Translations under genes and position numbers: made by a program
The notes under the pieces: model-generated
Seen by the model: only the letters and a program-made list of their open reading frames with translations
Told to the model about the DNA's origin: nothing
The model's database searches: none
DNA from: Candidatus Sulfotelmatobacter sp.
GTDB taxonomy: Bacteria; Patescibacteriota; Microgenomatia; Levybacterales; UBA12049
NCBI GenBank assembly: GCA_035568375.1
Contig: DATMOG010000046.1
Location: forward strand, 1-63,608
Length of the DNA: 63,608 nucleotides
Direction: 5' to 3'
Shown here: positions 4,262-39,071 of the stretch, one piece after another
Layout: every line of letters starts with the position of its first letter
Position numbering within the stretch: position 1 is the first letter of the stretch

Positions 4262-5365
4262 ATGGGTGCTGAGCGACTAAAATCTACTGTTGTTGCAAGC
4301 TCTTCTGGTGAAGGTACTCTTACTCGGAAAGACTATGAAAAGAGGCAGCTTTTTTATCAAAGACTAGTGAGAAGAAGAAATGAACTATATCAATTACCAG
4401 ATGCTTTTCGTCCGCACTTCTATTACACCGATGTACTGCTGTCGCATTTTGATGAGCTGAAAATAGATTGGAAGAAAGAAAACCCTACACAAGGTTTACT
4501 CAGTGCTATCAATTATGCAATATTGAAGAAAAAGCCGGAAGAATTTGTTGAGATATTTGGATTAGCAGATCCTAAAAGATTGGATGAAATTATTACTGAA
4601 GTTATACAAGACCCAATGATGCAACAAATTATTTATGATAATGCAGGAAGAGAGCCGGTAACAGCTATTCCTGACAGAGGAATTCCTCTTCAATATATAT
4701 TTCGTCATGCTTTTGGAGAAAAACCTTTCAGATTGGTAGATTTAGGAGGAGGCTATGGTCTCGCTGGGCCTCTTCTCAATTCACGAAGATATACAAAACC
4801 TGACTTTCCCGGGAAAGAACGAATTAGTCATTATGCAAAGGATGTTAATATTACATTTGGACTGTGCGTCGACATACGAGAACGGGAACAAGATATTGAT
4901 TGGATACAAGCAACATATCGACCACTCGCTGTAAATTTGCCACTAGTGCAAGATTTTTATGCGTTACTCGAAGAGGTTTCATTAGAGACAGGTAAATTCC
5001 CATTTCTCGTTGCTGATGTACGAAAACCTGATACACGTAAACGCATTCAAGAAAAACTACGTATGGACAATAACAATGACAAAGCGAACGCTGTTTTAAC
5101 CAGTTTTATGAGACAACAACTGGACAAAGATCCTTCAAGCCAGGACAAATTTATCCAAGAGACTATTATGCCGTTATTAGAAGAAGGAGGTATTTGGATT
5201 GATATTGGTGAGGAGCTTTTAGAAAGTAATAAAGGGCAAGCAACTTCAGCAGTAAAAGTATATGAAAAGAGAGATGGCAAGCTTGTCCTAAAGGGCATAC
5301 CATTTGTTTTGCAAGAACAAAGAAATATTCAAACAGTCAATTTAGCTTATTTTGGTTTTTCTTAA
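4262..5365 (+). CDS. Hypothetical protein with class I SAM-methyltransferase-like (Rossmann) motif order
   Basis: FRLVDLGGGYGLAG (motif I-like), then CVDI, FLVADV, and LLEEGGIWIDIG (motif order of class I MTases). The N-terminal 140 aa are unassigned. Confidence 0.45.
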   Translation: MGAERLKSTVVASSSGEGTLTRKDYEKRQLFYQRLVRRRNELYQLPDAFRPHFYYTDVLLSHFDELKIDWKKENPTQGLLSAINYAILKKKPEEFVEIFGLADPKRLDEIITEVIQDPMMQQIIYDNAGREPVTAIPDRGIPLQYIFRHAFGEKPFRLVDLGGGYGLAGPLLNSRRYTKPDFPGKERISHYAKDVNITFGLCVDIREREQDIDWIQATYRPLAVNLPLVQDFYALLEEVSLETGKFPFLVADVRKPDTRKRIQEKLRMDNNNDKANAVLTSFMRQQLDKDPSSQDKFIQETIMPLLEEGGIWIDIGEELLESNKGQATSAVKVYEKRDGKLVLKGIPFVLQEQRNIQTVNLAYFGFS

Positions 5366-5493
5366 ATACCAAATATAAGTGAGAATTCCCCTTTGTCCGA
5401 TAACGTATGTTATCGGAAATGCAGGAGCATACTTTACAAGTATAAAATATAAAAAGGGCTTATATATTTGATATACTCAAAGTCCACTTACCT

Positions 5494-8734: not shown

Positions 8735-9802
8735 ATGGATATTCAAGAATTACTAGGATTAACGATTAAAAATAAAGCTTCAGATTTGCACTTAATGGTT
8801 GGGTTGCCGCCAACATTTCGTATTGATGGTGCTTTGCGTTACCTTACGACGTATCCTGCCTTGAGAACAACAGATCTGGAAACAATGATTTTCTCTCTTG
8901 TAACTCCCGAGCAGAAGGAATTATTATTGACCAATAAAGAGCTTGATTTTTCATTTGGATATAAAGGGAAATCTAGTCAGGACATTGGACGATTTCGTAT
9001 TAATGCCTATTTCGAGAAAGGATCAATTGCAGCTGCACTACGTTTTCTTGCACCTGGTGTTCGTACTATTGAAGAATTAAGTCTTCCCAAAATTTGTCAT
9101 GAGTTTGCAAAGTTAAAACAAGGATTTGTGCTCGTAACGGGTCCAACCGGACATGGTAAATCAAGTACGCTTGCAGCTATTATTAATGAAATTAACTTGA
9201 ATAAATCATGTCATATTTTAACTATTGAAGATCCGATTGAGTATGTGTATCCCAAAGGGAACAGTATTATTTCACAACGGGAGATGGGAGTTGATACGCA
9301 TTCTTGGGGATTAGCACTTCGTTCTTCCCTTCGCGAAGACCCTGACGTTGTCTTAATAGGAGAAATGCGTGATCCAGAAACAATGCAAGCTGCAATTACT
9401 CTTGCTGAAACAGGTCATTTAGTTCTTTCAACATTGCATACCAATTCTGCTTCTCAGAGTATTGATCGTATCGTTGATGCTTTTCCGGCTGACCAACGGC
9501 CACAGATCCGCATTCAATTAGCAGCAACATTGAAGGGAATTATTTCTCAACGACTGGTTAGTAAAATAGGCGGAGGGCGTATCCCTGCTGTTGAGGTGTT
9601 GCTTGGGACACCTGCTGTTGCAAGTAACATACGCGATGGTAAGTCACATCTTATCGATTCTGTTATTCAAACATCAAAAGATATTGGTATGATAACAATT
9701 GATGAGTCACTTGCTCGACTCGTTAAAGATGGACAGGTAACACTTGATGATGCAAAATCTTACGCATTACGTGAAACTGAATTAGAACGGCTAGTAGGAT
9801 AA
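8735..9802 (+). CDS. pilT: Type IV pilus retraction ATPase PilT
   Basis: ASDLHL..G.PP..RIDG, Walker A GPTGHGKSST, VLIGEMRD, TGHLVLSTLHT. Starts 4 nt after the pilB stop. Confidence 0.85.
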   Translation: MDIQELLGLTIKNKASDLHLMVGLPPTFRIDGALRYLTTYPALRTTDLETMIFSLVTPEQKELLLTNKELDFSFGYKGKSSQDIGRFRINAYFEKGSIAAALRFLAPGVRTIEELSLPKICHEFAKLKQGFVLVTGPTGHGKSSTLAAIINEINLNKSCHILTIEDPIEYVYPKGNSIISQREMGVDTHSWGLALRSSLREDPDVVLIGEMRDPETMQAAITLAETGHLVLSTLHTNSASQSIDRIVDAFPADQRPQIRIQLAATLKGIISQRLVSKIGGGRIPAVEVLLGTPAVASNIRDGKSHLIDSVIQTSKDIGMITIDESLARLVKDGQVTLDDAKSYALRETELERLVG

Positions 9803-24729: not shown

Positions 24730-25860
24730 ATGTTGCGTGCGTTATCTTACTATCTTCTTTTTTTTCTTTTCATTTGCAGTGTTTCTTTAGTGATAACACC
24801 TTCTAGTTTTGCGCAACAAGTATCCCCTACTCCTCCAAAATCTGAATTTATGAAAGCAACTGTTATAGGATCTGAAGGTGAGAAAAAGAATCCCTATTCT
24901 GATTATCAATCAACGATCCAGGTCTTAGATGTTGTAATTCTTGATGGATCTGATATCGGAAAGACAGTGCAGGTACAGTATGACGCACAACGCATTAATG
25001 ATCTTATTTTACATACCGGAGATACGGTAATACTTACAAAAACAAGTAGTGCTTCAGGGCCAGTAACCTATTCTATTGAGAGCAAGTATCGGTTAGCTCC
25101 CCTTTCTTTTATTGGAATAGCTTTTGTCTTGCTTGTTGTTTTTGTTGCTGGATGGAAAGGGATTGGTTCATTTATAGGATTAGGGATTAGTCTTGGGATT
25201 ATTTTTGTATATATCGTTCCGCAAATTCTTGCAGGGCAAGATCCATTACTTGTTTGTATGATCGGTGCAGTCGGTATCTTATTATTTACAACATATGCAG
25301 CACATGGCATCTCAAAACAAACAAGCATTGCACTTGTTTCTACCCTTTTGGCACTCTTTTTAACCTATGGGTTATCAGTTCTATTTGTGAAGCTCTCTTT
25401 ACTCACTGGATATATTGATGAAAATTCGATAGCTGTTCATTTTGGAACGGGACATTTGATTGATGTAAAAGGATTACTTCTTGGTGGTATTATTATCGGG
25501 ACGCTTGGTGCGTTAAATGATGTTACCACAACACAAGCTGCTACGATGTTTGAATTAGTAAGGACTGATAAGCAAGTTACTCGTAAACAACTTTTCAAAA
25601 AAGGCCTATTTGTTGGACGGGAACATGTTGTCTCATTGATAAACACCTTAGTGCTTGCTTATGCAGGATCATCTCTTACTGTTTTTCTTTTTCTTTTTTA
25701 TAATGCATCTTACTATCCTCTGTGGGTAATCCTCAATAGCGAAACGTTAAGTGAAGAAGTTGTACGAACAATTGCAGGAACAATGGGACTTGTTCTTGTA
25801 GTACCAATCGTTACTTTCATTGCAGCGTATTTTGCAACGAAAACACAAAAAAGCGTGTAA
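24730..25860 (+). CDS. YibE/F-family polytopic membrane protein
   Basis: Signal/anchor, soluble beta-rich N-domain, then about 7 TM helices with GALNDVTTTQAATMFEL. Confidence 0.65.
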   Translation: MLRALSYYLLFFLFICSVSLVITPSSFAQQVSPTPPKSEFMKATVIGSEGEKKNPYSDYQSTIQVLDVVILDGSDIGKTVQVQYDAQRINDLILHTGDTVILTKTSSASGPVTYSIESKYRLAPLSFIGIAFVLLVVFVAGWKGIGSFIGLGISLGIIFVYIVPQILAGQDPLLVCMIGAVGILLFTTYAAHGISKQTSIALVSTLLALFLTYGLSVLFVKLSLLTGYIDENSIAVHFGTGHLIDVKGLLLGGIIIGTLGALNDVTTTQAATMFELVRTDKQVTRKQLFKKGLFVGREHVVSLINTLVLAYAGSSLTVFLFLFYNASYYPLWVILNSETLSEEVVRTIAGTMGLVLVVPIVTFIAAYFATKTQKSV

Positions 25861-25916: not shown

Positions 25917-26777
25917 TTATCCTTCGATAGCAAACTTATTCTCTCTATCCGTATGGGAGAATGAACTATAAAAGTGAGGAGATATAATATGAGCGAGTGG
26001 AACGATCAATAAATAAGAAAGCGATGCTAATCCTGCGATAAAAAAACTCACCGGTCCGTGAAGCCATAATGCAAGGAATAATCCTCCCCAGGTAAAAAAT
26101 AATCCAAGCAGTATCGAGAAGAGAATAGTTATCAATGGACGTTTACTAATGTGTTGTGCGATTGCGGCAGGAGTAACCAAAAGAGCAAAAACTAACAAAA
26201 CGCCAACAATAAGAATTGCTTCAGTTACTGTTGCCGCAAGTAGTACCATGAACATATTTGAGAGAAATCGTACAGGTACTCCCCTTGCCTCTGCAACTTC
26301 TGGATCAACTGATGAGAAAAGAAGCGGTCGAAACATACAGATAACAAACAGAAGAGTTATCATTCCTGTCAGAACACTTAAGATCAGATCATACGAAGTA
26401 ACACTTAAAATTGATCCAAAGAGGATACCGACTGTCTCATTGGCATTGGTTGTGTAGAGTTTCAAAAATAACACACCAAGACCTAATGCAAAGGAGAGTA
26501 CCATACCAATTTCAACGTCTCTGCCTTGCAGGCGTTTTCCTAGTGTTCCCATACCAAGTGCAGCAATAATAGTGAAAAGAAAGGTCCCTGTTAGTGCGCT
26601 AACACCTAAAAGTGCAGCACCTGTTGCTCCGGCAAAACCGATATGGGAGAGTGCATGTCCTGCAAATGCTTGTGATCTCAAAACGACAAAATAGCCAACA
26701 ATAGCACAGACTATCGAAATAATTGTTCCGGCAAGAAAGGCATTTTGTACAAATTGATGCTGTAATAATTCAATCAT
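25917..26777 (-). CDS. Metal (Zn/Mn) ABC transporter permease, ABC-3 family
   Basis: 8-9 TM helices. FSSVDPEVAEARGVPV motif is shared with the adjacent paralog. Confidence 0.8.
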   Translation of the reverse strand: MIELLQHQFVQNAFLAGTIISIVCAIVGYFVVLRSQAFAGHALSHIGFAGATGAALLGVSALTGTFLFTIIAALGMGTLGKRLQGRDVEIGMVLSFALGLGVLFLKLYTTNANETVGILFGSILSVTSYDLILSVLTGMITLLFVICMFRPLLFSSVDPEVAEARGVPVRFLSNMFMVLLAATVTEAILIVGVLLVFALLVTPAAIAQHISKRPLITILFSILLGLFFTWGGLFLALWLHGPVSFFIAGLASLSYLLIVPLAHIISPHFYSSFSHTDRENKFAIEG

Positions 26778-27586
26778 AGTTTTTTACTCACTTTTGTTGT
26801 TACAAATAGTCGAATTGGTAAATAGACGCTAAAGGAAATGGTTGCAATAAAAAAGGAAACAGGTAAATTGGTAATTGCGGCTAAGTAAATACTTACCCAA
26901 CTGTAGAGTAACCCAAGTAGTATAGCAAGTCCAATTGCACTGTATGGGTTTTTCACAAGTCGCATTGCTGTTGCAGCAGGACCAATAAGAAGGGTGAAAA
27001 TAAGAAGGACGCCAACTACTTGTACCGAAATGGAAACAGTAATAGCAATAAGAACAAGAAAGAGTATTGAAAGAAACTGTACAGGCACTCCTCTTGCTTC
27101 TGCAACTTCTGGATCAAAAGAGCTAAAGAGTAAGGGTCGAAAAATGAGTGCAATTACCCCAATCGTTGCCATACTAAAAAATGCTGTGATGAAGACATTA
27201 TTTGAGCTAATGCCAAGGATTGTCCCAAAAAGAATACTGTATGCTTCTTCTGCGTACCCTGAATAAAGGAATAAAAAGAGCACACCAAAAGCAAGGGCTA
27301 AGGTAAAGATAATGCCGATGGGGACATCTCTTTCACGAAACTGTCTTCCTATCGATCCGATTGCAATTGCAGCAGCTATAGTAAAAGAAAGTAATCCCCA
27401 GAGAGGATTAATACCAAGCCATACAGCCCCTGCTGCTCCAGCAAAGCCTACGTGTGAAAATGCATGTCCAGCAAATGTTAACCCACGAGCAAGCATGAAG
27501 TATCCGACAATTGCAGCAACAATAGAAACAAAGAACGAGGCAATAAAGGCATTTTGGATAAATGAATATTGCAGAATATCAAACAT
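26774..27586 (-). CDS. Metal (Zn/Mn) ABC transporter permease, ABC-3 family (paralog)
   Basis: FSSFDPEVAEARGVPV. 4-nt overlap with the downstream permease. Confidence 0.8.
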   Translation of the reverse strand: MFDILQYSFIQNAFIASFFVSIVAAIVGYFMLARGLTFAGHAFSHVGFAGAAGAVWLGINPLWGLLSFTIAAAIAIGSIGRQFRERDVPIGIIFTLALAFGVLFLFLYSGYAEEAYSILFGTILGISSNNVFITAFFSMATIGVIALIFRPLLFSSFDPEVAEARGVPVQFLSILFLVLIAITVSISVQVVGVLLIFTLLIGPAATAMRLVKNPYSAIGLAILLGLLYSWVSIYLAAITNLPVSFFIATISFSVYLPIRLFVTTKVSKKL

Positions 27587-27591
27587 AGGTA

Positions 27592-28401
27592 TCAGTGTTC
27601 TTCTCCAATAACAAATAATCGTCCTTGTGCTTTTATGACCTCAACGGGTGACCCGTACAATTTTGTTAAGTTTTCATTTGTAATTACTTCATCAGGTTTT
27701 CCGATCGTACCATGGGTATTTGCGACATACAGTACCCTATCGATAACTGGTAACAAAAGATTAACATCATGGGTTACTAATAATACAGTCATTTTTCTAT
27801 TCCTGGCAATTTTGGTAATCAGCGAGACAATACCTTCCGAATGGATAATGTCTAAGCTTGCTAATGGTTCATCAAGAAGCAGAATTTCAGGATGTGTGAG
27901 CAGTGCTTGTGCAATGAGCAGTCGTTGCTGCTCTCCACCTGACAATTTGCCAACTGGCATACGAGCTAAATGCAACATATCAACTTCATCAAGTGCTTGT
28001 TCGATATGATGCTCACGTTTTGCGTTTGGTAGTGCAATCCCCCATTGATTACCGTCCAAGCCAAAACCAACGATATCTTTTGCCCGTAATGCAAGGTCAG
28101 CTTCAAGCGTTCTATGTTGAGGTGCATAACCGATTTTGTTATTACCTCTTTTTGGAGTTTTACCAAGGACCGTAATATTGCCGGAAGTAGGTTTATATAA
28201 CCCCAGAAGTAATTTAAGGAGTGTGCTTTTTCCTGCGCCGTTTGGGCCGAGAATTGCGATGAATTCACCTTCGTTGATGGTGAGTGAAATATTGTGGAGG
28301 ATTGTTCTTGCGCCTAATGTCAAATTTACATTTTCAAGCTCGATAGTTGTTGTTTGCATAAGTCTATTATAGCTAATGTTAGTGAGAGACGGTAGCTGCA
28401 A
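27592..28401 (-). CDS. Metal ABC transporter ATP-binding protein
   Basis: Walker A GPNGAGKST, signature LSGGEQQR, Walker B LLLDEP. The likely true start is the internal Met (MQTTTIELENV) at 28359, which removes the overlap with the SBP gene. Confidence 0.85.
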   Translation of the reverse strand: MQLPSLTNISYNRLMQTTTIELENVNLTLGARTILHNISLTINEGEFIAILGPNGAGKSTLLKLLLGLYKPTSGNITVLGKTPKRGNNKIGYAPQHRTLEADLALRAKDIVGFGLDGNQWGIALPNAKREHHIEQALDEVDMLHLARMPVGKLSGGEQQRLLIAQALLTHPEILLLDEPLASLDIIHSEGIVSLITKIARNRKMTVLLVTHDVNLLLPVIDRVLYVANTHGTIGKPDEVITNENLTKLYGSPVEVIKAQGRLFVIGEEH

Positions 28402-29308
28402 GAGCCTGTTGTAGCTTATTGAATTGATTCATCATCCACTCTTGATAATGGGTATTTTTTGGTAAGGTTTCGGTAACGGAAACGACTGGAATGTGTTGTT
28501 GTTTTGCTGCATTTTGTAAGTTTGTTGTAATTGGTGTTACCGTTTGTGCGTTATAGATAAGCACTTTTATTTGTTTTTTCGTTATTTGATCATTTGCTTT
28601 TGCCACATCATCTGCTGATGGATCATTTCCTTCTGCAATTGCTTTTTCAAAAGGAAAAGAAGTGAGGACGTTTAGATTCATAGGTTTTGTTTGATAGAGA
28701 TAAATTGTTTCAGTTAATCCAATAGGTGTTCCTTGATAGGTAGCCTTAATAACATTCATTTTTTTCGTCAAAGGTTGTAAAGAAGTAATAAATGTGTGGA
28801 GATTGTTAGCAAATGTTGCGCTGTCAGTAGGATCAGCTTTTTTCAATGCATCAGTTATTTTTGTTGCAATTGTTTGTACATTGTCAATGCCATACCATAC
28901 GTGAGGATTATCAGGTAATGTATGGTTTGCAATCATTGTCCCTGTTAAGACAACCCTGTTAGCATTAGGTGATGCAGAAAGAAGTTTATCCATCCAGGTA
29001 TCATATCCATCGCCATTTTTAATGACAATTTGTGCGGTTGAGACTGCTTTTGCATCTTTAACACTTGATTCATATTCATGTGGATCAGCATTAGGATCTG
29101 AAAGGATACTCATGATTTGTACTTTGTCCCCCCCCAGTTGCTTTGCGATATCTCCATAAAAGTTTTCTGCTGCGACTATTTGAATCGTTGTAGAGGAAGG
29201 AGTTGGTTGGTGTGTACGCTTTAAGAATAATCCTAATGCTCCTAAGAGTACGACTATTGTTATTGCGATGAGTGTTTTTTTCATAATTAATTTATTTGTT
29301 GTTGGCAA
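28379..29308 (-). CDS. Metal ABC transporter substrate-binding protein (ZnuA/TroA/MntC cluster A-I type)
   Basis: N-terminal anchor KKTLIAITIVVLLGALGL and the DPHEYE motif. The likely start is MKKTL at 29284. Confidence 0.8.
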   Translation of the reverse strand: MPTTNKLIMKKTLIAITIVVLLGALGLFLKRTHQPTPSSTTIQIVAAENFYGDIAKQLGGDKVQIMSILSDPNADPHEYESSVKDAKAVSTAQIVIKNGDGYDTWMDKLLSASPNANRVVLTGTMIANHTLPDNPHVWYGIDNVQTIATKITDALKKADPTDSATFANNLHTFITSLQPLTKKMNVIKATYQGTPIGLTETIYLYQTKPMNLNVLTSFPFEKAIAEGNDPSADDVAKANDQITKKQIKVLIYNAQTVTPITTNLQNAAKQQHIPVVSVTETLPKNTHYQEWMMNQFNKLQQALAATVSH

Positions 29309-29727
29309 GAACTACAAAGTCCGAAAAATTCAAGTGCGTGACTGGTAACTTTGAAATTTTTTTTCTTTTCAATATGCTTTTCAAGTACTTCAATATTGCA
29401 GTCGGAAATGTCCTGAATATCACCGCAATTGGTACAAACCAAATGGTGATGATCAGTTTTTGTTTGTAATTCGTATCGGGATTTTCCTTCATTGAGTTGC
29501 ACTGTTTTTAAAAGTCCTTTTTCGGTGAACATATTAACAATACGGAAAACAGTTGCCGGATCGGTTTTAATTTCTTTTTGATCGAGGTAGTCAATCATTG
29601 TTTGAACATCCAATGGTTTATCTGAAGACTCAAGTAATTTCATCAGAGCAATGCGTGCAGGAGTAGCTCGAAGATCTACTTCGTTTAATTCTGTTTTACA
29701 GTCATGTTGTATTTTTGCGTTTACCAT
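29287..29727 (-). CDS. Fur-family metalloregulator (Zur/Mur-like)
   Basis: Winged-helix N-terminus, HHHLVCTNCG...GLCSSC metal-site pattern. First gene of the metal ABC operon. Confidence 0.8.
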   Translation of the reverse strand: MVNAKIQHDCKTELNEVDLRATPARIALMKLLESSDKPLDVQTMIDYLDQKEIKTDPATVFRIVNMFTEKGLLKTVQLNEGKSRYELQTKTDHHHLVCTNCGDIQDISDCNIEVLEKHIEKKKNFKVTSHALEFFGLCSSCQQQIN

Positions 29728-29756: not shown

Positions 29757-29807
29757 TTGCAAGAGGATATTTTTTATATTATAATGCAAATAATTCGCAT
29801 TTGTCAA
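29757..29807. promoter_or_regulatory. Overlapping divergent promoters sharing a 19-bp Fur-type palindromic operator
   Basis: Plus strand: TTGCAA (29757-62) -N17- TATAAT (29780-85). Minus strand: TTGACA (29802-07) -N18- TATAAT (29778-83). Operator AATGCAAAT-A-ATTCGCATT at 29783-29801. Confidence 0.6.
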
Positions 29808-29839: not shown

Positions 29840-32800
29840 ATGGCAGTACTAACAGAAATAAGACCAGAAACATATAAGGTATCTTCAAGCTCTTTTGCGC
29901 ATGAAAAAAAAACGAAACCTGTTATTTCTTTTCAACCAAGAAATTTTGAGGATATTCGAAGAGAAGAAGGGGTAGCCCTTGGATCTGTGAAGGTTGATTA
30001 TACGTATAAAAATGGTAAGAAAGAGACTGTTCAGTTGGCACCAGGAACATTTGTTCTACAAAGAGAGTACTTACCTGCTCTGCGAGCTCTTTGTGCTATT
30101 GTTGCTATTGACCCTCCTGGATATCTGGAAGCAGAAAGAACTTCAGCCGTTTTTAAAAATGAAATAAATCCACAGGTTGTGAATGAAGAAGCCTTAGTAC
30201 AAGACTTTGGAGATCGAGTAATCCCTGCACTTTTTTATATACAAAATAAGGCTGAACAATATCATTTTGACGATGAACTTGCACAATTTTTGCTTGATAG
30301 AACACCTGAAGGAACAAGAAGAGCTGAGGAATTTTTAGCAACTGCACGCGGTCCACAAAATGAATACGATGAGAAGGGTAACCTTATAAAGAGCATGTCT
30401 GATAGTTGCTCTAATGTGATTGGTACAGTTGCTGGTAAACCATATAGAATACACCCTCATGGAAAAATTAACGGCAATGATAAGATAGCTCTTGCGATAC
30501 TTGCTCTTGCCGGTGATGATCGAGCAGCGCGATTTGCAGGAATTTTAACTGAAAACAATCCTGACTTAGCTACAGTTCCTTTTGGGGAAAGAGCTGCAAG
30601 AATGGCTGAGATAACTCTTACAAGAGGCATGCATGAGAACGATCAGGTAGAGATAGAAACGATGACAGTTGCTGGTGAAGCCTATGCAACAGCGTCTGTT
30701 CTTGCTGCCTTTGTTCACAATCCACAAGAAGCAGTAACAGCCAAACAGTTTGAGATTCTTTCTCGAGAAAAAATTGTTGGGAAACGAGATATTTTTATTG
30801 AGCAGCCACCTGAATTGCAAAAAGCTGATGAAGCACTTGAAAATGCATTGGTCCAAGCATTAAAAAGCATTAGAGCAGAAACTGGCGGTAAGTCGGATAA
30901 CTGGAGAGGGGCTTTGGCTAAATTGTTTGATGATGCTATTGCACTTGAGACGATACAAAATGCACGGTTTAATCAACAGCCAGCCGATAAAAACGAAGCT
31001 AATATGCTAGCGACTATTGCTTTTGCTATTGAATTAGAATTACAGACTCGAGCTATCGAGGCAGAGAGAGTACCAACGACTGTGTTAGAAAAAGAAGCAA
31101 CACAGCATGCCACAGCGCTCCGAGAAGCGGGTTTTCGATATCCTCAGCATGGAATGGGTGAAGCAAGTAATACCATCAGGCATTTTGAATATGATAAACG
31201 TACAAAACAATGGATTCGTTGTGAGTCACATTCTCATGAAACAAAAGAATTATTGTTGCAAGCAAGTCAAAAAGTGGTTGCACCTCTTAAAGAAATAGCC
31301 GGAAGAACTGAGGTAAAAGCTTATCAACAAAAAATGCAACAAATCAAACCAGGAGGAAGTGCTCAACAAGAACCACGAAATCATGCCCATAAAGAGCACG
31401 ATCATGAAAAGCTTTCCGAACAGGAAGTCAGGATGCTTAAGGCAGTTAATAGCCTTCGTGTTCCTAAAGAGACGGAAGCGCTTGATAGTAAAGAAGCATG
31501 GAAGGATCGTATGCAGCAAGTTGCAGAAACAACTGTTCATATTGCTTCTCTTTCCGATACTCCAGAAGCAGAAGCTGTTCGTACGAAATTTAATGAACAA
31601 TTATTTTATGGTGTTATCGATGAGGCGAGTTTGAGAGAAAGACCTTCGGATGCTTTACGTGCAAGAAGAGAAGAGTTAACGAATATGGTTACCCAAAGTC
31701 TGAAAGAGGTAAGGGCAAAAAGTTCAGTAGCATCAGAGGTTATTGCGCTTACGATAGCAAAAGCGATGGAATCTTCGATTCAAGCGATTATTTTTGGAGA
31801 CAAATTGCCAACAATTAATCAAATTACACCAAAAGATACTAAATTTGTTATTTCCGTATTAGCATATGCTCTTGCATTAGAAACGCAACCTGAAGCCGTT
31901 GTTAAAACGGAAAAAGAGCAGAACATTATTAAACTGGCAAAAGAAATTAATGAGCAGTTTGGCGCCTATGCCATGAATCCGAGTAAACACGAGAAGGGTG
32001 CATTTCATTTTAATGAAAGAATCAAAGGTGGTCAGAATGAGGCTGATCCTTGTCCAGATCATACAGCACAAAGTACCCAAACAGTAAACCAAATAAATCA
32101 ACAATCAAAACAGCTTGCCAATAATTCCAGACAACCTCAACGCAGAGAACCGAGAGTTTCAGAAAAACCAGTAATGAAAGGCGGATCTGAAGAGTACGGT
32201 ACTACCAAGAAGTTTGGGTCTTCTTCACATGATGCAAGTAGCCAACACACAGAATCCGTAGAATCAGGAGCTGTAGGACGGGGGCGTTCACCTGAGAGAC
32301 AAACAAGAAGAGTTGAAAGCGCTAAGACGGGACCCTCAGATAGTAACAGACTTGCTTCTGTGAGAAAGGCTATTCAAGAAGCAATAGCCTCCACAGATAG
32401 TAATGCATCTGCGAGAAAGGCTAATCAAGAAGCAACAGTTCCTTCTGTTACGTATACCTCATTTGATAACGATGCTCCTCTACATCCCAAACCTGATAAA
32501 AGAAGCAGTGGGTTTATGCGTGGTAAACTGAAGGAATTAACTCGTAAACGACGGAAATTACTCCAGGGAGTAACGACTGTAGCTTCTGGGGGTACTCCAT
32601 CCTTAGTGATACCTGTATTAGCACATTCTGAATCAGGAGCTTCACAAAAAGTGACTGCAATAAAGCCTCTGCGTTTGATAGAGTCTACCAAAGGTCAAAT
32701 GCCTGATAACGTTCCTGCTGGTGCTAAAAAAGATGCTCCCCTTACAGCACCAAATTTTTATGTGCGTTCACAGTTAAGAGTAAGAGAAACAGTAAAAGGA

Positions 32801-33694
32801 GCGTCAAAAGAACGTGTGGCAGTAGTTGTATCTCATACAGCTAGTGGAGCAACGACATCAGGGCATTTATCGACTCCTTCAGGCGACCCTAATAATGCAG
32901 AAAGAGTGGTAACGGTATCAGGAAAGACAAAATCAAAATTAGGTAATGCTGTAACTGGTAAGAAATCTGCTGAAAAAGGTCCTTTTTCTCCAAAAGCGCC
33001 CAAAACACTTAATTCCACCAGACAAGAAGGAAAAAGTCGATCGTTACCGGAAGAATCGAAAGTAACCGGAGAAACATTGGCACAAGCAGTGACTGACGTA
33101 CAGGTTAGTGAGGCAATTGCGAAAATGAATGCTGAAGTTGCAGAGCAGGCAGAAGAAACAGGGCAAACAGCACAAGGAGGAATAGCAGAAACAGTTGCAA
33201 GAACGACTCATGCAGGTGATTCAAAGGAACAGACAACATCGCATTCTGCGTCTGTTGATGCTGGTGTTGCAACGGAGATAGAAACACGAAATCAAAAAGG
33301 AGAGGGTGTTAAAGTGCGCCTTAACACTGCAAGAGATAGAGTTACAGCTTCGCAGTCAAGAACAGAAAATCAGCCTGTTGCAGATGCAGCAACAGGAAAT
33401 GGGCAAATAGCCGTAGCAGCATCAGGCACGAGTATGGTAAAAACAGTTGCGATAGGAACGCAAGAACGGGAAGCACAACTTACCAGTACTCCACCGCAAC
33501 CCCCTACTCCACCAACGGATAGAGTGAAGCGGGTAAAGAATAGACAAGGGCAAGGACATCAAACTGCAACACTTGCTGCTGCAGTAGCAGACACTAATAA
33601 AGTAGGTCCTGACGTAATAAGTATTAAAGAATTATTTAGAGCAAGATTGGCTGCAGCGCAACAGGCTCTAGAGACCGATTCCATAGCTGCCTAA
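29840..33694 (+). CDS. Giant orphan protein (1284 aa): helical repeat-containing N-terminal part and low-complexity C-terminal half
   Basis: Long uninterrupted ORF. No TM or signal peptide and no assignable catalytic motif. Internal module duplication. S/T/A/K/Q/E-rich tail with PPQPPTPPT. Confidence 0.7.
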   Translation: MAVLTEIRPETYKVSSSSFAHEKKTKPVISFQPRNFEDIRREEGVALGSVKVDYTYKNGKKETVQLAPGTFVLQREYLPALRALCAIVAIDPPGYLEAERTSAVFKNEINPQVVNEEALVQDFGDRVIPALFYIQNKAEQYHFDDELAQFLLDRTPEGTRRAEEFLATARGPQNEYDEKGNLIKSMSDSCSNVIGTVAGKPYRIHPHGKINGNDKIALAILALAGDDRAARFAGILTENNPDLATVPFGERAARMAEITLTRGMHENDQVEIETMTVAGEAYATASVLAAFVHNPQEAVTAKQFEILSREKIVGKRDIFIEQPPELQKADEALENALVQALKSIRAETGGKSDNWRGALAKLFDDAIALETIQNARFNQQPADKNEANMLATIAFAIELELQTRAIEAERVPTTVLEKEATQHATALREAGFRYPQHGMGEASNTIRHFEYDKRTKQWIRCESHSHETKELLLQASQKVVAPLKEIAGRTEVKAYQQKMQQIKPGGSAQQEPRNHAHKEHDHEKLSEQEVRMLKAVNSLRVPKETEALDSKEAWKDRMQQVAETTVHIASLSDTPEAEAVRTKFNEQLFYGVIDEASLRERPSDALRARREELTNMVTQSLKEVRAKSSVASEVIALTIAKAMESSIQAIIFGDKLPTINQITPKDTKFVISVLAYALALETQPEAVVKTEKEQNIIKLAKEINEQFGAYAMNPSKHEKGAFHFNERIKGGQNEADPCPDHTAQSTQTVNQINQQSKQLANNSRQPQRREPRVSEKPVMKGGSEEYGTTKKFGSSSHDASSQHTESVESGAVGRGRSPERQTRRVESAKTGPSDSNRLASVRKAIQEAIASTDSNASARKANQEATVPSVTYTSFDNDAPLHPKPDKRSSGFMRGKLKELTRKRRKLLQGVTTVASGGTPSLVIPVLAHSESGASQKVTAIKPLRLIESTKGQMPDNVPAGAKKDAPLTAPNFYVRSQLRVRETVKGASKERVAVVVSHTASGATTSGHLSTPSGDPNNAERVVTVSGKTKSKLGNAVTGKKSAEKGPFSPKAPKTLNSTRQEGKSRSLPEESKVTGETLAQAVTDVQVSEAIAKMNAEVAEQAEETGQTAQGGIAETVARTTHAGDSKEQTTSHSASVDAGVATEIETRNQKGEGVKVRLNTARDRVTASQSRTENQPVADAATGNGQIAVAASGTSMVKTVAIGTQEREAQLTSTPPQPPTPPTDRVKRVKNRQGQGHQTATLAAAVADTNKVGPDVISIKELFRARLAAAQQALETDSIAA

Positions 33695-33697
33695 GAT

Positions 33698-33970
33698 ATG
33701 AGAGCAACGAAGAAAAAATTTCGAGTTATTGTAAGACCGTTTATTCCGAGAAAAGTTCCCTATCAGATTCCAACGGCATTGGTTGATACGGTAATACAAG
33801 AAGCGCTTTCAAAATTGAAAAAAGTAGTCTATGTGGGGTGGAATAAAAGGGTGAGAGAGGGAAAAAAACAGTATTTCTTTTTTGTTGCCACTGGCGATAC
33901 GGGACCTGAGGCACGAAAAATATTTAAGACAAGTGAAAATTTTGGTGAAGATATTTGGCTGATCGAATAA
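33698..33970 (+). CDS. Small basic hypothetical protein (90 aa), translationally coupled to the giant ORF
   Basis: ATG 4 nt after the stop of the 1284-aa ORF. Basic N-terminus MRATKKKFRVIVRPFIPRK. Confidence 0.5.
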   Translation: MRATKKKFRVIVRPFIPRKVPYQIPTALVDTVIQEALSKLKKVVYVGWNKRVREGKKQYFFFVATGDTGPEARKIFKTSENFGEDIWLIE

Positions 33971-35929
33971 TTAAAATTCTACTCGCTCACCTTCTTTGAT
34001 TTCTTCATTTATGATCATCTCGGCAAGCTTATTTTCTATTGTATCCTGAACTAACCGGATCATTCCTCGAGCACCATAACGTGGATCGTGTCCTTCTTTG
34101 GCAAGATACTTCATTGTTTGTGTAGAAACGGAAAAGCCGATATTTCTTTTGGCTAATTCTTGCTGCAATTTTGCAATTTGTAACTCCCCTATTTTTTCAA
34201 GTGCCTCAGGAGATAATGAATTGAAGACAATAATGTCATCAAACCGGTTGATAAATTCGATACGGAAATAATCCTGCAAGATTTCCTTAAGTTCCTTTTC
34301 AATCTCTGTTTGTGTTTTTCCTTCCTCGATCAAATCTAGAATATCTTCAATACCAGCGTTACTGGTTGCTATAATGACGGTATTTTTGAAATCAACTACT
34401 TTCCCCTGCCCATCGGTAAGTCTTCCATCATCAAGAACCTGGAGAAAGATATCAAATATTCTTGGGTGTGCTTTTTCGATTTCATCAAGCAAAATGAGGT
34501 TATATGGTTTTGCTTTTATTGGATTCGTTAACTGTCCTCCTTCTTCAAAACCAATATAGCCAGGAGGTGCACCAATCATTCGTTGCACCGTGTGAGCTTC
34601 GGCAAATTCTGACATATCAAGTCTCACCATTGCTTCTTCATCACCAAATATTTCTTTTGCCATTGCTTTTGCAAGTTCTGTTTTGCCAACACCTGATGGA
34701 CCGACGAAAAGGAATGAGCCAATTGGTCTATTCTTTTTGCCGAATCCAAGTTTGGAGCGTTGGATTACTTTTGCAACTCTGGCAATGGCATCATCTTGTC
34801 CTTTGACTTTTGTTGTTAATTTATCAGGTAGTGCTGATAAATCTTTTTTATCCAAATCAGTAAGACTCCCGATAGGGATTGAGGTTTTTTCTGAAATGAT
34901 TACCCTGAGCATTTCAAGAGTAACGCTATGACTTGATTGTGTTTGTGCTAAAAACGCTGCTTCTTCAAGGAGATACATTCCTTTTGCAGGAAATGCTTGG
35001 TCAGGGATATATTGTTTGGCAAGGGAGATTAATTCTTTAATGAACTCTTTTTCCCATGTGACATGCAGTCGTTCATCGATTCGCTTTTGATGACTTGTCA
35101 GGATTTCTTTAATTTCCTGTGTCGAGGGTTCTTCAATAGTGATTACTTCAAAACGGGAGATAATGCCGGGATTTTCTGTAGCAAATTTTTTGTATGAACT
35201 TTCATTTGCCGTTCCAATAATTTGACAATTTTCAACAGCATATTTAATCTGTCCTGCTTCAAAGGTAAATAATTCATCCATAAAAAGGAGTGATTTTCTT
35301 CCAGCGGTACTACTAAGAATATTTACTACTTGATCCAAAAAAGCGCTATTGCCGGAAAAAAGCTGAAATACTTTTGTGTCTATTAAACGTGAGCGCAATG
35401 CCTGTGCAAGTGTTGTTTTGCCTACTCCCGTTTCTCCAACGAGTAATACGCTATTACGAAAGGTACGTTGTAATATCCTTATTATCTCGGCTATTTCTTT
35501 TTCTCTACCGAGAAAAGAGAGCGGTTCGGCAACATTTTCAACTTTATGCAGATTATGTAAAAGGATTTCTTTTAAGACACTTCGGTAGTCATGGGATGCT
35601 CCAAGTTCTTCCAGTCCTTTCAATGCTGCTAATAATACCACGTGTTCATCGTTAGTTGGACAATCAAGCAGTTGCCGTTGCAAGGCACAGTGGCGTTCTA
35701 AATGTGTTTCAGCGGAGAGAGTAGCAGGTTGTTTTGCATGAAACAATCTCCCTTTGTCATGAGCTTCTTCAAGTAATTCTTTAAGATGTTGCTTGACCGT
35801 TTCTGCTGAATCAAGGAGAGAAAAACTTTCTGTTTGTTCAAGTATTACAAGGGCAACTGTTGCGAAAAAAGCTCGCTCGTTGTCCCCTTGTGTTGCAGAT
35901 GCGTCTTTAATTATTGTTTGTATTGTCAT
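33971..35929 (-). CDS. Clp/Hsp100-family AAA+ ATPase (two nucleotide-binding domains, short ClpB/ClpC-like)
   Basis: D1 Walker A GETGVGKTT and Walker B LLFMDE. D2 Walker A GPSGVGKTE, Walker B LILLDEIEKAH, sensor GARGMIRLV. No ClpP-docking IGF loop recognised. Confidence 0.8.
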   Translation of the reverse strand: MTIQTIIKDASATQGDNERAFFATVALVILEQTESFSLLDSAETVKQHLKELLEEAHDKGRLFHAKQPATLSAETHLERHCALQRQLLDCPTNDEHVVLLAALKGLEELGASHDYRSVLKEILLHNLHKVENVAEPLSFLGREKEIAEIIRILQRTFRNSVLLVGETGVGKTTLAQALRSRLIDTKVFQLFSGNSAFLDQVVNILSSTAGRKSLLFMDELFTFEAGQIKYAVENCQIIGTANESSYKKFATENPGIISRFEVITIEEPSTQEIKEILTSHQKRIDERLHVTWEKEFIKELISLAKQYIPDQAFPAKGMYLLEEAAFLAQTQSSHSVTLEMLRVIISEKTSIPIGSLTDLDKKDLSALPDKLTTKVKGQDDAIARVAKVIQRSKLGFGKKNRPIGSFLFVGPSGVGKTELAKAMAKEIFGDEEAMVRLDMSEFAEAHTVQRMIGAPPGYIGFEEGGQLTNPIKAKPYNLILLDEIEKAHPRIFDIFLQVLDDGRLTDGQGKVVDFKNTVIIATSNAGIEDILDLIEEGKTQTEIEKELKEILQDYFRIEFINRFDDIIVFNSLSPEALEKIGELQIAKLQQELAKRNIGFSVSTQTMKYLAKEGHDPRYGARGMIRLVQDTIENKLAEMIINEEIKEGERVEF

Positions 35930-36042
35930 AGTGTAAACGAGAGCGTTCCATGTAATAACTGTTACCTGACTATTGGAATTTCGACAAACTGGCGGGTTGT
36001 ATTTTTAAACCTCAGGGTCTATAAATGCTACTCAATTGCATT

Positions 36043-36071
36043 AGTATATGCAATATGATTGCATTTGTCAA
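36043..36071 (-). promoter_or_regulatory. Promoter TTGACA-N17-TATACT with a Fur-type palindrome in the spacer, aimed at the Clp-like ATPase gene
   Basis: TTGACA (36066-71), TATACT (36043-48). Palindrome TATGCAATA-T-GATTGCATT at 36047-36065. The flank GCATTTGTCAAT.ATGA is shared with the 29.8-kb site. Confidence 0.55.
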
Positions 36072-36248: not shown

Positions 36249-36719
36249 CTATACTGTAGTGAGCGGCTTTCTAGAAGCGGTTGTTAGGTGGCCATTAACT
36301 ATTTTAAAATCAATTACTGTTTCAGTTCCAGGTAATTGACCATTATGCTTTCCTGCTCTTGGAAAGAATATTATCAAAGGGTCATTAAGAGTCTTTGTAG
36401 GATTCTCATTTGCATCATTTTGCACTGATACGACTGCCTCTTGATTGCCACACGAGATAGCCTCTAAAGATACCTCCGGAGCTACTCTTACTACTTGCTC
36501 AGGAGTTTTTTGACATCCTCCATTATCTAGTAAGACTTCAGGAGGCGTACTCACTTCGGGAATTTGTGTTGTTTGGCAACTTCCCACTAATGCAAGTACA
36601 GCAGTACTTGTTACCAACCCTCTTCTAACAGATCCTGCTGGAATTACTTTGTCTTTAAATCTTTTGACAAGTTCTTTGCCTCTTCTCTTTTCTTTCATAA
36701 TTCTGTTGGATTCTATCAT
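36249..36719 (-). CDS. Putative lipoprotein (hypothetical)
   Basis: Basic N-terminus, hydrophobic stretch and lipobox-like LALVGSC. No other motif. Confidence 0.5.
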   Translation of the reverse strand: MIESNRIMKEKRRGKELVKRFKDKVIPAGSVRRGLVTSTAVLALVGSCQTTQIPEVSTPPEVLLDNGGCQKTPEQVVRVAPEVSLEAISCGNQEAVVSVQNDANENPTKTLNDPLIIFFPRAGKHNGQLPGTETVIDFKIVNGHLTTASRKPLTTV

Positions 36720-38411: not shown

Positions 38412-39071
38412 ATGAGTACTGAAAAAAACCAACCTGACTTAAGCTTCCTAGCACTCGATCATGCAAGACGTGTACAAGAAATGGAAACAGATTTTGCAAA
38501 ACGTGTAATAAATGGCACACCGGTGGAAGAGTATTATAATTACGGCGTAGCCTCTAGACTTGTGGAGGCAGAAGCAGATTTAGCTGGTATTACCCCAGGT
38601 GAGAACGTTTTATTTATCGGAAGTGGTCCATTTCCAAGTTCAGCCATATGTCTTGCTCGCCAACGTGACGTATCTGTTACTTGTTATGATCTCTCTTCTG
38701 ATGCTTACCAAATATCTACAGCAGTTATTGAGAAAATAGGATTGGCTGATAAAATTAAAGTAGCACAGGTATCAGGAGCAGATGGTAGTATGAGTGGCTA
38801 TGATGCTATCATTGTTGCGTTTGAATTGATGAATAAACCTGCTGTGTTAACAAATATTTTGGCTAATGTAGATCCCGACGCTAGGGTTATTATAAGATCA
38901 AGTGATGGGAATCGGAAGTCACTTTATCCTGCAGTTACTGATAAAGATCTTGCTGGTGGCATTACTAGGAAGGGATTAATACCTACCGGATCAAGGGTAA
39001 AACTGCCGGATTTTGATATTGCTTCTCGATGTTATATACGACCTTCTTCCTCCGGAAAAACTCAAACTTGA
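38412..39071 (+). CDS. Nicotianamine-synthase-like (NAS/CntL-like) SAM-dependent aminobutyryl-transferase family protein
   Basis: VLFIGSGPFPSSAICLA matches the NAS GSGPLP..S motif. YDAIIVAFELM and RSSDGNRKSLYPAVTDKDLAGG match the NAS C-terminal RSA.G.R.FLYP.V...DL.GF pattern. Recalled from memory, not searched. Confidence 0.55.
   Translation: MSTEKNQPDLSFLALDHARRVQEMETDFAKRVINGTPVEEYYNYGVASRLVEAEADLAGITPGENVLFIGSGPFPSSAICLARQRDVSVTCYDLSSDAYQISTAVIEKIGLADKIKVAQVSGADGSMSGYDAIIVAFELMNKPAVLTNILANVDPDARVIIRSSDGNRKSLYPAVTDKDLAGGITRKGLIPTGSRVKLPDFDIASRCYIRPSSSGKTQT

Follow-up and report, generated by a model that had tools for sequence, protein, structure and literature searches.

A giant Cys/His protein, its small partner and a Clp-like ATPase as a conserved unit of a putative Zur-like regulon in Candidatus Levyibacteriota

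In a stretch of 63,608 nucleotides (nt) from a Candidatus Levyibacteriota assembly (GCA_035568375.1, contig DATMOG010000046.1; hereafter the window), a gene for a giant protein of 1284 amino acids (aa) (P0001) is followed by a gene for a 90-aa protein (P0002) and converges on a gene for a Clp-like ATPase (P0003). These three genes are one conserved unit. Judged from their sequence context, they form, with a probability of about one half, one module of a metal-starvation regulon governed by a Fur-family, most likely Zur-like, regulator in a small clade of this candidate phyla radiation (CPR) lineage. The metal-regulon context is the main clue to function, and it had gone unnoticed in an earlier note on this DNA, as had the common operator and the conserved Cys and His positions.

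The giant gene is present in a single copy in the genome of the window (G000; 1.57 Mb in 110 contigs, 92% complete). The genes of the locus are:

25917 to 29727, minus strand: divergent operon of a Fur-family gene, a ZnuA-type binding protein, an ABC ATPase and two ABC-3 permeases (Pfam)
29287 to 29727, minus strand: Fur-family regulator gene (Pfam FUR, E 7e-30)
29840 to 33694, plus strand: giant gene, 1284 aa, an uninterrupted open reading frame (ORF)
33698 to 33970, plus strand: 90-aa gene, with its ATG 3 nt past the TAA of the giant gene and thus placed for translational coupling
33971 to 35929, minus strand: Clp-like ATPase gene, 652 aa, its stop abutting the stop of the 90-aa gene

The other members of the divergent fur-znuABC operon are equally clear in Pfam (ZnuA 5e-48, ABC_tran 3e-36, ABC-3 5e-55 and 5e-53).

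A link between the giant, small and Clp-like genes had been proposed in the earlier note and is now strongly supported by their co-occurrence, operon form, a gene fusion and a common operator. When a six-member alignment of the giant protein was used as query, it recovered among genomes only the congeners G004 (contig stretch L012; giant protein P0008) and G009 (L006; contig CAZLSZ010000018.1), plus three metagenome loci (L043, L044 and L045), and genomic context was read at these five loci and the window. The giant gene occurs in three of 13 species of one Ca. Levyibacteriota genus (G000 and two of the 12 others) and is absent from 28 further relatives and from 400 other genomes sampled across the class. 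All three genes are found in the same three genomes, with their arrangement conserved. For the small ORF, clear matches (51-58% identical) are confined to G004 and G009, the same two genomes as for the giant gene, apart from one marginal match in another family (E 0.005, with an internal stop). Orthologs of the N-terminal half of the ATPase (55-70% identical) are likewise confined to G004 and G009, and the matches in other genomes are generic Clp proteins at E 1e-18 or weaker, with none specific in the 28 further relatives.

At all five other loci the small gene directly follows the giant gene, with a gap of ~1-4 nt or an overlap (G009), and its product is 50-58% identical across them. The special ~650-aa Hsp100 is found at four of the five, either convergent or in one operon; the fifth, L043, carries the giant and small genes on a contig that is too short. 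The order in G009 is giant, small and convergent ATPase, G004 has the same order split across two contig ends, and L045 has the layout of the window. In L044 the Clp-like, giant, small and ZIP transporter genes are co-directional with gaps of 4-30 nt and thus look like one operon. The first gene after the operator in L044 belongs to the SaoD/DsrE family (4766-5149, plus strand; NCBIfam 4e-49), followed by a mini-protein gene and then the ATPase gene.

One relative, P0015, carries the small protein as a fusion at the C-terminal end of the giant protein (36% identity over 85 aa, E 7e-18), which suggests that the 90-aa protein is a functionally detached C-terminal domain of the giant protein. A second fusion, hinted at by the alignment of P0016, was not significant by BLASTP, so that P0015 is the only fusion counted, and a dedicated search for the small domain within longer proteins gave none. 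With 28 and 13 clusters, the ATPase subfamily and the giant family are of comparable rarity. We infer, as the best reading of this linkage, that the giant protein is a dedicated client or partner of the unfoldase.

The promoters predicted around these genes carry a palindromic operator motif:

29757 to 29785, plus strand: sigma-70-like promoter of the giant gene, TTGCAA-17-TATAAT (consensus match), with TATAAT at 29780-29785 overlapped by the operator
29784 to 29800: predicted operator palindrome ATGCAAATAATTCGCAT, read from the sequence and common to two divergent promoters
29807 to 29778, minus strand: fur-znu promoter, with TTGACA at 29807-29802, an 18-nt spacer filled by the operator ATGCAAATAATTCGCAT, and TATAAT at 29783-29778
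36025 to 36071, minus strand: promoter of the Clp-like gene, with TTGACA at 36071-36066, a 17-nt spacer and TATACT at 36048-36043 (sequence read)
36064 to 36048 and 36041 to 36025, minus strand: predicted ATPase operators, ATGCAATATGATTGCAT in the spacer and a second copy at the predicted start site (sequence read)

The palindrome has a size of 17 bp and the core ATGCAA-N5-TTGCAT. Twelve sites in five loci, which lie in promoter spacers or over a -10 box or start site, give the consensus ATGCAAT-N3-ATTGCAT. Six sites with at most one mismatch at the 12 fixed positions were counted genome-wide in G000, which is no more than expected by chance; three of them are in the promoters of the module and of fur-znu and three are inside genes. 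In the relatives, the palindrome precedes the giant gene in G004, G009 and L045, the last of which repeats the divergent layout of the window, and the ATPase promoter of G004 (L012) shows the same succession of TTGACA, operator, -10 box and operator. Operator-bearing promoters in G009 (L006) lie upstream of the Clp-like region, ahead of a 107-aa gene preceding the ATPase, and in L044 the operator lies upstream of the whole operon. A Fur-family gene (Pfam FUR) adjoins the operator in G000, where it is the only one, as well as in L044 and L045, and lies ~600 nt off in G004.

A 17-bp Zur box, ATGCAACNNNGTTGCAT (ATGCAAC-N3-GTTGCAT), has been predicted upstream of znuABC-zur in Desulfovibrio, which has a divergent Zur (Rodionov et al. 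2004, PMC545781). The operator motif described here equals that prediction, and the L044 site is a perfect match to it. The genes neighboring the module include ZnuA and ABC-3 components, a ZIP/ZupT-like transporter, a YibE/F-family protein and, in the window, a nicotianamine-synthase/CntL-like protein. Zinc is the metal suggested, because the box is of the ZUR_D type, a ZIP/ZupT-like gene is present and the giant protein has Cys/His chemistry.

In the relatives the operator also precedes two genes in succession, the first for a protein of ~105 aa that contains Cys and an H-E/K-x-x-H motif and the second for a 54-aa mini-protein (MKFYNVKTRE...). These genes are located at L012 588-1066 in G004 and at L006 14488-14942 and 15222-15696 in G009; in L044 the mini-protein gene (5229-5387) immediately precedes that of the ATPase. 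The ~105-aa gene is missing from G000, where contig C86 gives just a weak match to the mini-protein.

The giant protein was modeled with AlphaFold2 (AF2) on a shallow alignment, and the model is confident for residues ~150-260 and ~550-765. Its parts, with predicted local distance difference test (pLDDT) values, are:

Residues ~150-260 (30287 to 30619, plus strand): N-terminal folded domain, with near-invariant C190, H205 and H207 on a beta-hairpin; pLDDT 77-92
Residues ~331-478 (30830 to 31273, plus strand): module copy 1, ending in C461-x-x-H-x-H
Residues 513-525 (31376 to 31414, plus strand): weak His-rich patch HAHKEHDH, at the position of long poly-His tracts in some relatives
Residues ~550-765 (31487 to 32134, plus strand): module copy 2, a helical bundle with a beta-hairpin and a helix; pLDDT 88-98
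Residues ~766-1284 (32135 to 33691, plus strand): basic low-complexity tail, probably disordered; pLDDT <50 from residue 765
32353 to 32387 and 32404 to 32438, plus strand: 35-nt near-tandem repeat pair in the tail, 89% identity, 51-nt spacing

Cysteine and histidine dominate what is conserved in this family. In a 12-member alignment they account for eight of the 27 columns conserved in at least 10 sequences (start Met excluded), against 3% Cys plus His overall, and the proteins hold just 3-7 Cys, the conserved positions among them. Module copy 2 has a near-invariant H718, invariant H723, G731 and C738, and P739 and H741 in 10 of 12 members; a few Arg, Pro and Gly positions are also invariant or nearly so. 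In the AF2 model the conserved Cys and His flank beta-hairpins beside a helix, and the hairpin of the N-domain is similar to that of the module. Strong poly-His tracts occur in at least seven of 15 family members, at varying positions.

All that the earlier note had read from the sequence of the giant gene holds. The ORF is single and uninterrupted (29840-33694, plus strand; 1284 aa), and the reported internal module duplication is real, with residues ~331-478 aligning to ~611-755 by BLASTP at E 2e-5 and 23% identity, and with one module of a relative aligning to both copies in P0001. The extra copy is found only in G000, P0008 and P0010, and most members of the 12-member alignment have one module; the duplication is thus a feature of a sub-clade. 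Module copy 1 has low AF2 confidence because it is covered by just three sequences. The C-terminal low-complexity tail is borne out as S/T/A-rich (S/T/A/V-rich, hydrophobic-poor and basic, with an isoelectric point (pI) of 9.9 over residues ~770-1284), as is its PPQPPTPPT stretch. The near-tandem DNA repeat, given as 32357-32384 and 32408-32435, could be extended on both sides to the pair listed above and doubles a VRKAI tail motif that the closest relatives also have. Other short motifs conserved in the tail are a LEEAF-like helix and a C-terminal amphipathic helix, which in most members is accompanied by L-P-x-D-P-(Y/F)-G-A; P0001 has a related helix ending in IAA.

The giant gene was also described as more GC-rich than its surroundings, which it is: the ORF has 41.6% and its tail 44.5%, where the window averages 36.3% and the genome 35.6%. 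GC content at third codon positions (GC3) is 0.24, compared with 0.28 for the Clp gene, and is not raised, so that the excess reflects amino-acid composition. With a native GC3, a foreign origin of the gene argued from GC content was rejected. An assembly chimera was rejected too, since P0001 is collinear with its G004 ortholog over residues 142-1193.

The label "orphan" is only partly right, because a small family of very narrow distribution exists: an exhaustive hidden Markov model search with a two-sequence profile against 1.8 billion representatives returned 13 clusters (P0001 and P0008-P0019), ten of them at E <1e-10. In a word-indexed search of 5.8 billion proteins, the query itself was the sole match for the giant protein, and the ESM Atlas gave nothing for the giant or the small protein. 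P0001 has no match in Pfam, NCBIfam or PADLOC, so no known family was found for its N-terminal part, and a Pfam scan of 12 giant-family members gave no match even at E 1, Strep_his_triad included. Neither CobW nor any other P-loop family was matched by the giant or small protein in Pfam or NCBIfam. Some members have a CC pair, in D-Q-C-C-E, whose context is unlike the CxCC of COG0523 proteins. A PDB sequence search gave no relative of either protein. Fold searches with P0001 residues 1-800 gave generic helical bundles only (Foldseek E 0.07 or worse, VIA Z <=7.4), in rows that covered residues 539-768 and barely sampled the N-domain.

The reported lack of a signal peptide, transmembrane helix or catalytic motif was also borne out, as no 19-residue window exceeds Kyte-Doolittle 1.6 and no family is matched. 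Across the family, none of 15 members has a credible signal peptide or transmembrane segment; a single high N-terminal score, in L045, was attributed to an over-extended TTG start. The giant copy of G009 is in three ORF pieces (L006 7760-12014), one break being a run of N within a His-rich repeat and the other a frame change within the module, perhaps because the gene is a pseudogene or was misassembled there. The piece at 8869-9786 bears a second hairpin motif like that of the N-domain. A 369-aa neighbor and a 318-aa ORF of G004 are unrelated.

The small protein is as first described, a basic 90-aa ORF (pI 10.2) starting 4 nt after the giant stop, with its own stop abutting that of the Clp-like gene at 33970/33971. 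Its AF2 model (pLDDT 73) has a beta-alpha-beta-beta-alpha-beta topology, for which fold searches gave no significant match (VIA Z <=3.4, Foldseek E 0.1 or worse), and it matches nothing in Pfam, NCBIfam or PADLOC.

The Clp-like ATPase is a reduced Hsp100. Its D2 is canonical, with Walker A and B motifs, a GYIG pore loop and a D2-small domain (Pfam AAA_2 3e-63, ClpB_D2-small 1e-21), and the GYIG loop and Walker motifs align with those of a ClpB-type protein of G000. D1 keeps Walker A and B but has lost the pore-loop segment and a segment past Walker B, and some orthologs have Lys in place of the Arg finger. The M-domain is missing (~125 residues in the alignment), and scores are far below the NCBIfam cut-offs for ClpB (TIGR03346, 456.7 against 1232) and TssH (365 against 885). 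The PADLOC models PDC-M37B and DolB match D2, which is generic AAA+ homology.

Instead of a Clp_N domain, which was not among the best 25 of 50 Pfam families, P0003 has a unique N-domain of ~135 aa with a conserved C-P-x-x-D-E-H motif. As C-P-(T/H)-x-D-E-H, at ATPase residues ~95-105 (within 35525-35929, minus strand), this motif is present in all seven aligned members of the subfamily and echoes the C-P-x-H of the giant-protein modules; by its sequence it may be a metal-sensing site. No [IVL]G[FL], which we take to be the pattern of the ClpP-docking (IG(F/L)) loop, was found between sensor 1 and the D2-small domain, and no ClpP (PF00574, CLP_protease) was found in G000, a genome that is 92% complete. 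Because there is neither a docking loop nor a detectable ClpP, the ATPase is taken to be a stand-alone unfoldase or remodeler and not the subunit of a protease. G000 has three Hsp100-type genes (on contigs C46, C61 and C92) and keeps separate ordinary ClpB/ClpC-type genes. The subfamily is discrete: its 28 clusters are at least 40% identical along the entire N-terminal half, and the next matches are ordinary ClpC at 27%. These observations name and dissect a giant hypothetical family and a distinct Clp subfamily that is now labeled "ClpC" or "ClpA" in databases.

The identity of the repressor, metal binding by the giant protein, the metal concerned and the substrate of the unfoldase are what we infer from these features, and the following scheme would accommodate them. 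When metal is plentiful, the sole Fur-family repressor would sit on the ATGCAA-N5-TTGCAT operators and keep fur-znuABC, the giant/small pair and the Clp-like gene off; when metal is short, all three units would be expressed together. The giant protein would be cytoplasmic, with ~770 folded N-terminal residues presenting one Cys/His site in the N-domain and one per helical module, and these sites, together with poly-His in the relatives, would bind metal, with Zn2+ favored and Ni2+ or others possible. Its basic disordered tail of ~500 residues would terminate in a helix for docking, in cooperation with the 90-aa protein as the detached C-terminal domain. The dedicated Hsp100 hexamer, with its D2 motor, its own Cys/His N-domain and no ClpP, would seize the tail of the giant protein, or proteins that this protein holds, and unfold them without degradation, so that ATP would be spent on the release, handover or recycling of tightly bound metal. 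Since production of the protein would be restricted to times of metal scarcity, a simple storage role is unlikely.

Importers are the usual output of the well-studied metal-starvation regulons, along with metal-free paralogs and small NTPase chaperones. In G000, by contrast, all that the sole Fur-family regulator appears to control besides transporters is two undescribed protein families and a stripped-down Hsp100 unable to feed a protease. More tentatively, the module may be a new kind of ATP-driven metal-trafficking machine in which the Hsp100 strips zinc from, or hands it over from, the giant Cys/His protein or proteins captured by it. If so, a CPR bacterium with a tiny genome could scavenge and redistribute zinc during starvation with a functional analogue of the GTPase metallochaperones made of unrelated parts, and the system would offer a handle on metal scarcity in ultra-small symbiotic bacteria. 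If the unfoldase acts on the Cys/His protein, it would be the first AAA+ unfoldase dedicated to metal handling. No paper on the giant family or on a Zur-controlled Hsp100 was found in the literature.

Several observations weigh against a role in metal starvation. Context is limited to six loci. Compared with G004, the ATPase is 80% identical and the small protein 58%, but the giant protein just 23%; it evolves far faster than its partners, a pace that is typical also of surface or conflict proteins. As to which metal is concerned, the regulator scores below every NCBIfam cut-off (Fur 91.5, PerR 85 and Zur 50.5 bits), and the binding protein is equally near to Zn, Mn and Fe types. P0001 itself has the weak His patch HAHKEHDH only, and no known metal-binding fold is matched by its folded domains as modeled. 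That the module would be induced along with an importer speaks against simple storage, yet defines no role.

A zinc-state switch of translation is the alternative that fares best, and we still regard it as unlikely. In it, the giant protein would be a metal-sensing client of the unfoldase, and its basic tail and the 90-aa partner would target ribosomes or RNA, for instance in hibernation or in remodeling under starvation. There is a precedent in Mrf, which is destabilized by Clp when zinc-bound and which, when zinc-free, binds 30S and recruits protein Y (PMC7431043). The tail (pI 9.9) and the small protein (pI 10.2) are suitably basic, the regulon has no other obvious sparing genes, and the P0002 model repeatedly yields Foldseek rows to protein Y/HPF (E 0.13-0.56). 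However, these rows are non-significant (VIA Z <=2.4), the topology of P0002 is unlike that of HPF, no ribosomal or RNA-binding domain was detected in Pfam or NCBIfam, and with no ClpP control by degradation is improbable.

Toxins and adhesins are under Fur-type control in many bacteria. The giant protein might accordingly be a secreted or surface protein by which an episymbiotic CPR cell interacts with its host, where metal limitation would be the contact cue, the small protein a chaperone and the ATPase an unfoldase for export. Its very fast evolution, its long disordered and repeat-prone tail and its lineage-restricted, patchy distribution would fit, but the credible signal peptides or transmembrane segments (0 of 15 members) and the secretion-system genes (0 of six loci) that such a role calls for were not found. 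The small protein, being basic and C-terminally fused in P0015, differs from secretion chaperones, and wherever flanks exist (L043 is too short) the neighbors are metal transporters and a Fur gene. We therefore think this quite improbable; the effector role raised in the earlier note is unsupported, since a signal peptide, secretion genes and a matching small acidic chaperone are all missing. A chlamydia-like effector, suggested by the ytg-like metal operon and the small genome, was dropped, the lineage being Ca. Levyibacteriota.

For the regulator, the PerR score (85 bits) is close behind that for Fur (91.5 bits), the binding protein lies no nearer to Zn types than to Mn and Fe types, and Hsp100 genes are classic stress genes. 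From this one could draw a general module for stress and proteostasis, under a PerR-like regulator in place of a metal-sensing one, in which Mn import counters oxidants, the Hsp100 is a disaggregase and the giant protein is a holdase or condensate scaffold whose Cys and His sense oxidation. Such a module is poorly compatible with an operator that is the same as the predicted Zur box but unlike the PerR consensus TTATAATNATTATAA (PMC545781), and with a ZIP/ZupT-like transporter within the L044 operon. No locus has a gene for a peroxidase, rubrerythrin or the like, and the genome has separate ordinary ClpB/ClpC-type genes, which makes this alternative improbable as well.

Least likely, and very improbable indeed, is a mobile conflict or anti-phage module of an AAA+ ATPase and a large variable protein that merely landed beside a metal locus: the patchy distribution, the rapid evolution of the large protein and the matches of PDC-M37B and DolB (ClpB-like domains) to the ATPase D2 would agree with it, but those matches reflect generic D2 homology, the giant and small proteins have no PADLOC match, the Fur gene and operator recur in five loci and the metal importer in four with differing gene orders, GC3 is native, and no mobile-element gene was noticed among the neighbors scanned.

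Further genes flank the module in the window. A 219-aa nicotianamine-synthase/CntL-like gene (38412-39071, plus strand) lies 2.5 kb from it (Pfam NAS 4e-13; NCBIfam CntL 9e-9, below the cut-off) and could, by its sequence, indicate an opine-type metallophore; no operator was found upstream of it. A gene for a YibE/F-family membrane protein flanks the metal locus both in the window (24730-25860, plus strand) and in the unrelated metagenome locus L044 (3151-4167), and may for that reason be part of the same metal island. Upstream of the ATPase promoter, a 156-aa ORF (36249-36719, minus strand) has a lipoprotein-like N-terminus (LVGSC), no family match and no counterpart at the other loci. Neither an integrase nor another mobile-element gene was noticed among the neighbors scanned.

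Among known systems, ClpV with its client VipA/VipB in type VI secretion is an Hsp100 without ClpP docking that acts on one client, which is recognized by a specialized N-domain. It resembles P0003 as a dedicated Hsp100 without ClpP docking and differs in that there is no type VI secretion context here and the D1 of P0003 lacks the pore loop. The mycobacterial Mrf/Clp pair (PMC7431043) shares the principle that a Clp-type machine decides the fate of a zinc-binding protein induced by zinc starvation, depending on the metal state of that protein. Unlike P0001, Mrf is small, acts on ribosomes and is degraded by ClpP proteases via ClpS; the present system lacks ClpP and has an ATPase that is co-regulated with, and genetically dedicated to, its presumed client.

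The Desulfovibrio ZUR_D-type regulon (PMC545781) is similar in having a 17-bp palindrome beside a Fur-family gene and a ZnuABC importer, with apparent autoregulation. The ZUR_D box is itself a prediction and controls the importer only, whereas the operator described here would also control the giant protein, its small partner and the Hsp100.

The Fur regulon of Mycoplasma genitalium (PMC6968530) likewise has a single regulator in a small genome, a dyad operator and a tiny regulon comprising an importer and a lineage-specific His-rich protein. That protein, Hrl, is a surface lipoprotein tied to nickel, whereas P0001 has no export signal, is much larger, contains Cys/His modules and has an ATPase partner; no sequence similarity between the two was found. 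Streptococcal PhtD/AdcAII (PMC3842936) also pairs a large protein with His sites with a ZnuA-family binding protein under a zinc repressor, with Pht passing zinc on to the importer. Export and HxxHxH triads (Strep_his_triad) set the Pht proteins apart; P0001, by contrast, has no signal peptide or Pfam match, has the motifs C-x14-H-x-H and H-x4-H-x14-C-P-x-H, and has the ATPase as a partner. The Zur-regulated G3E GTPases of COG0523 (PMC2770081) are cytoplasmic, induced by zinc starvation and often equipped with His tracts and a Cys motif, and they couple hydrolysis to metal handling. They combine NTPase and metal site in one small protein, whereas here a separate Hsp100 would serve a non-homologous metal-binding part of ~1000 aa. 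These three, the M. genitalium Fur regulon, PhtD/AdcAII and COG0523, are the nearest parallels; none is homologous and none has an unfoldase. In how it is regulated, the module follows the logic of a Zur or Fur regulon, with parts that are new.

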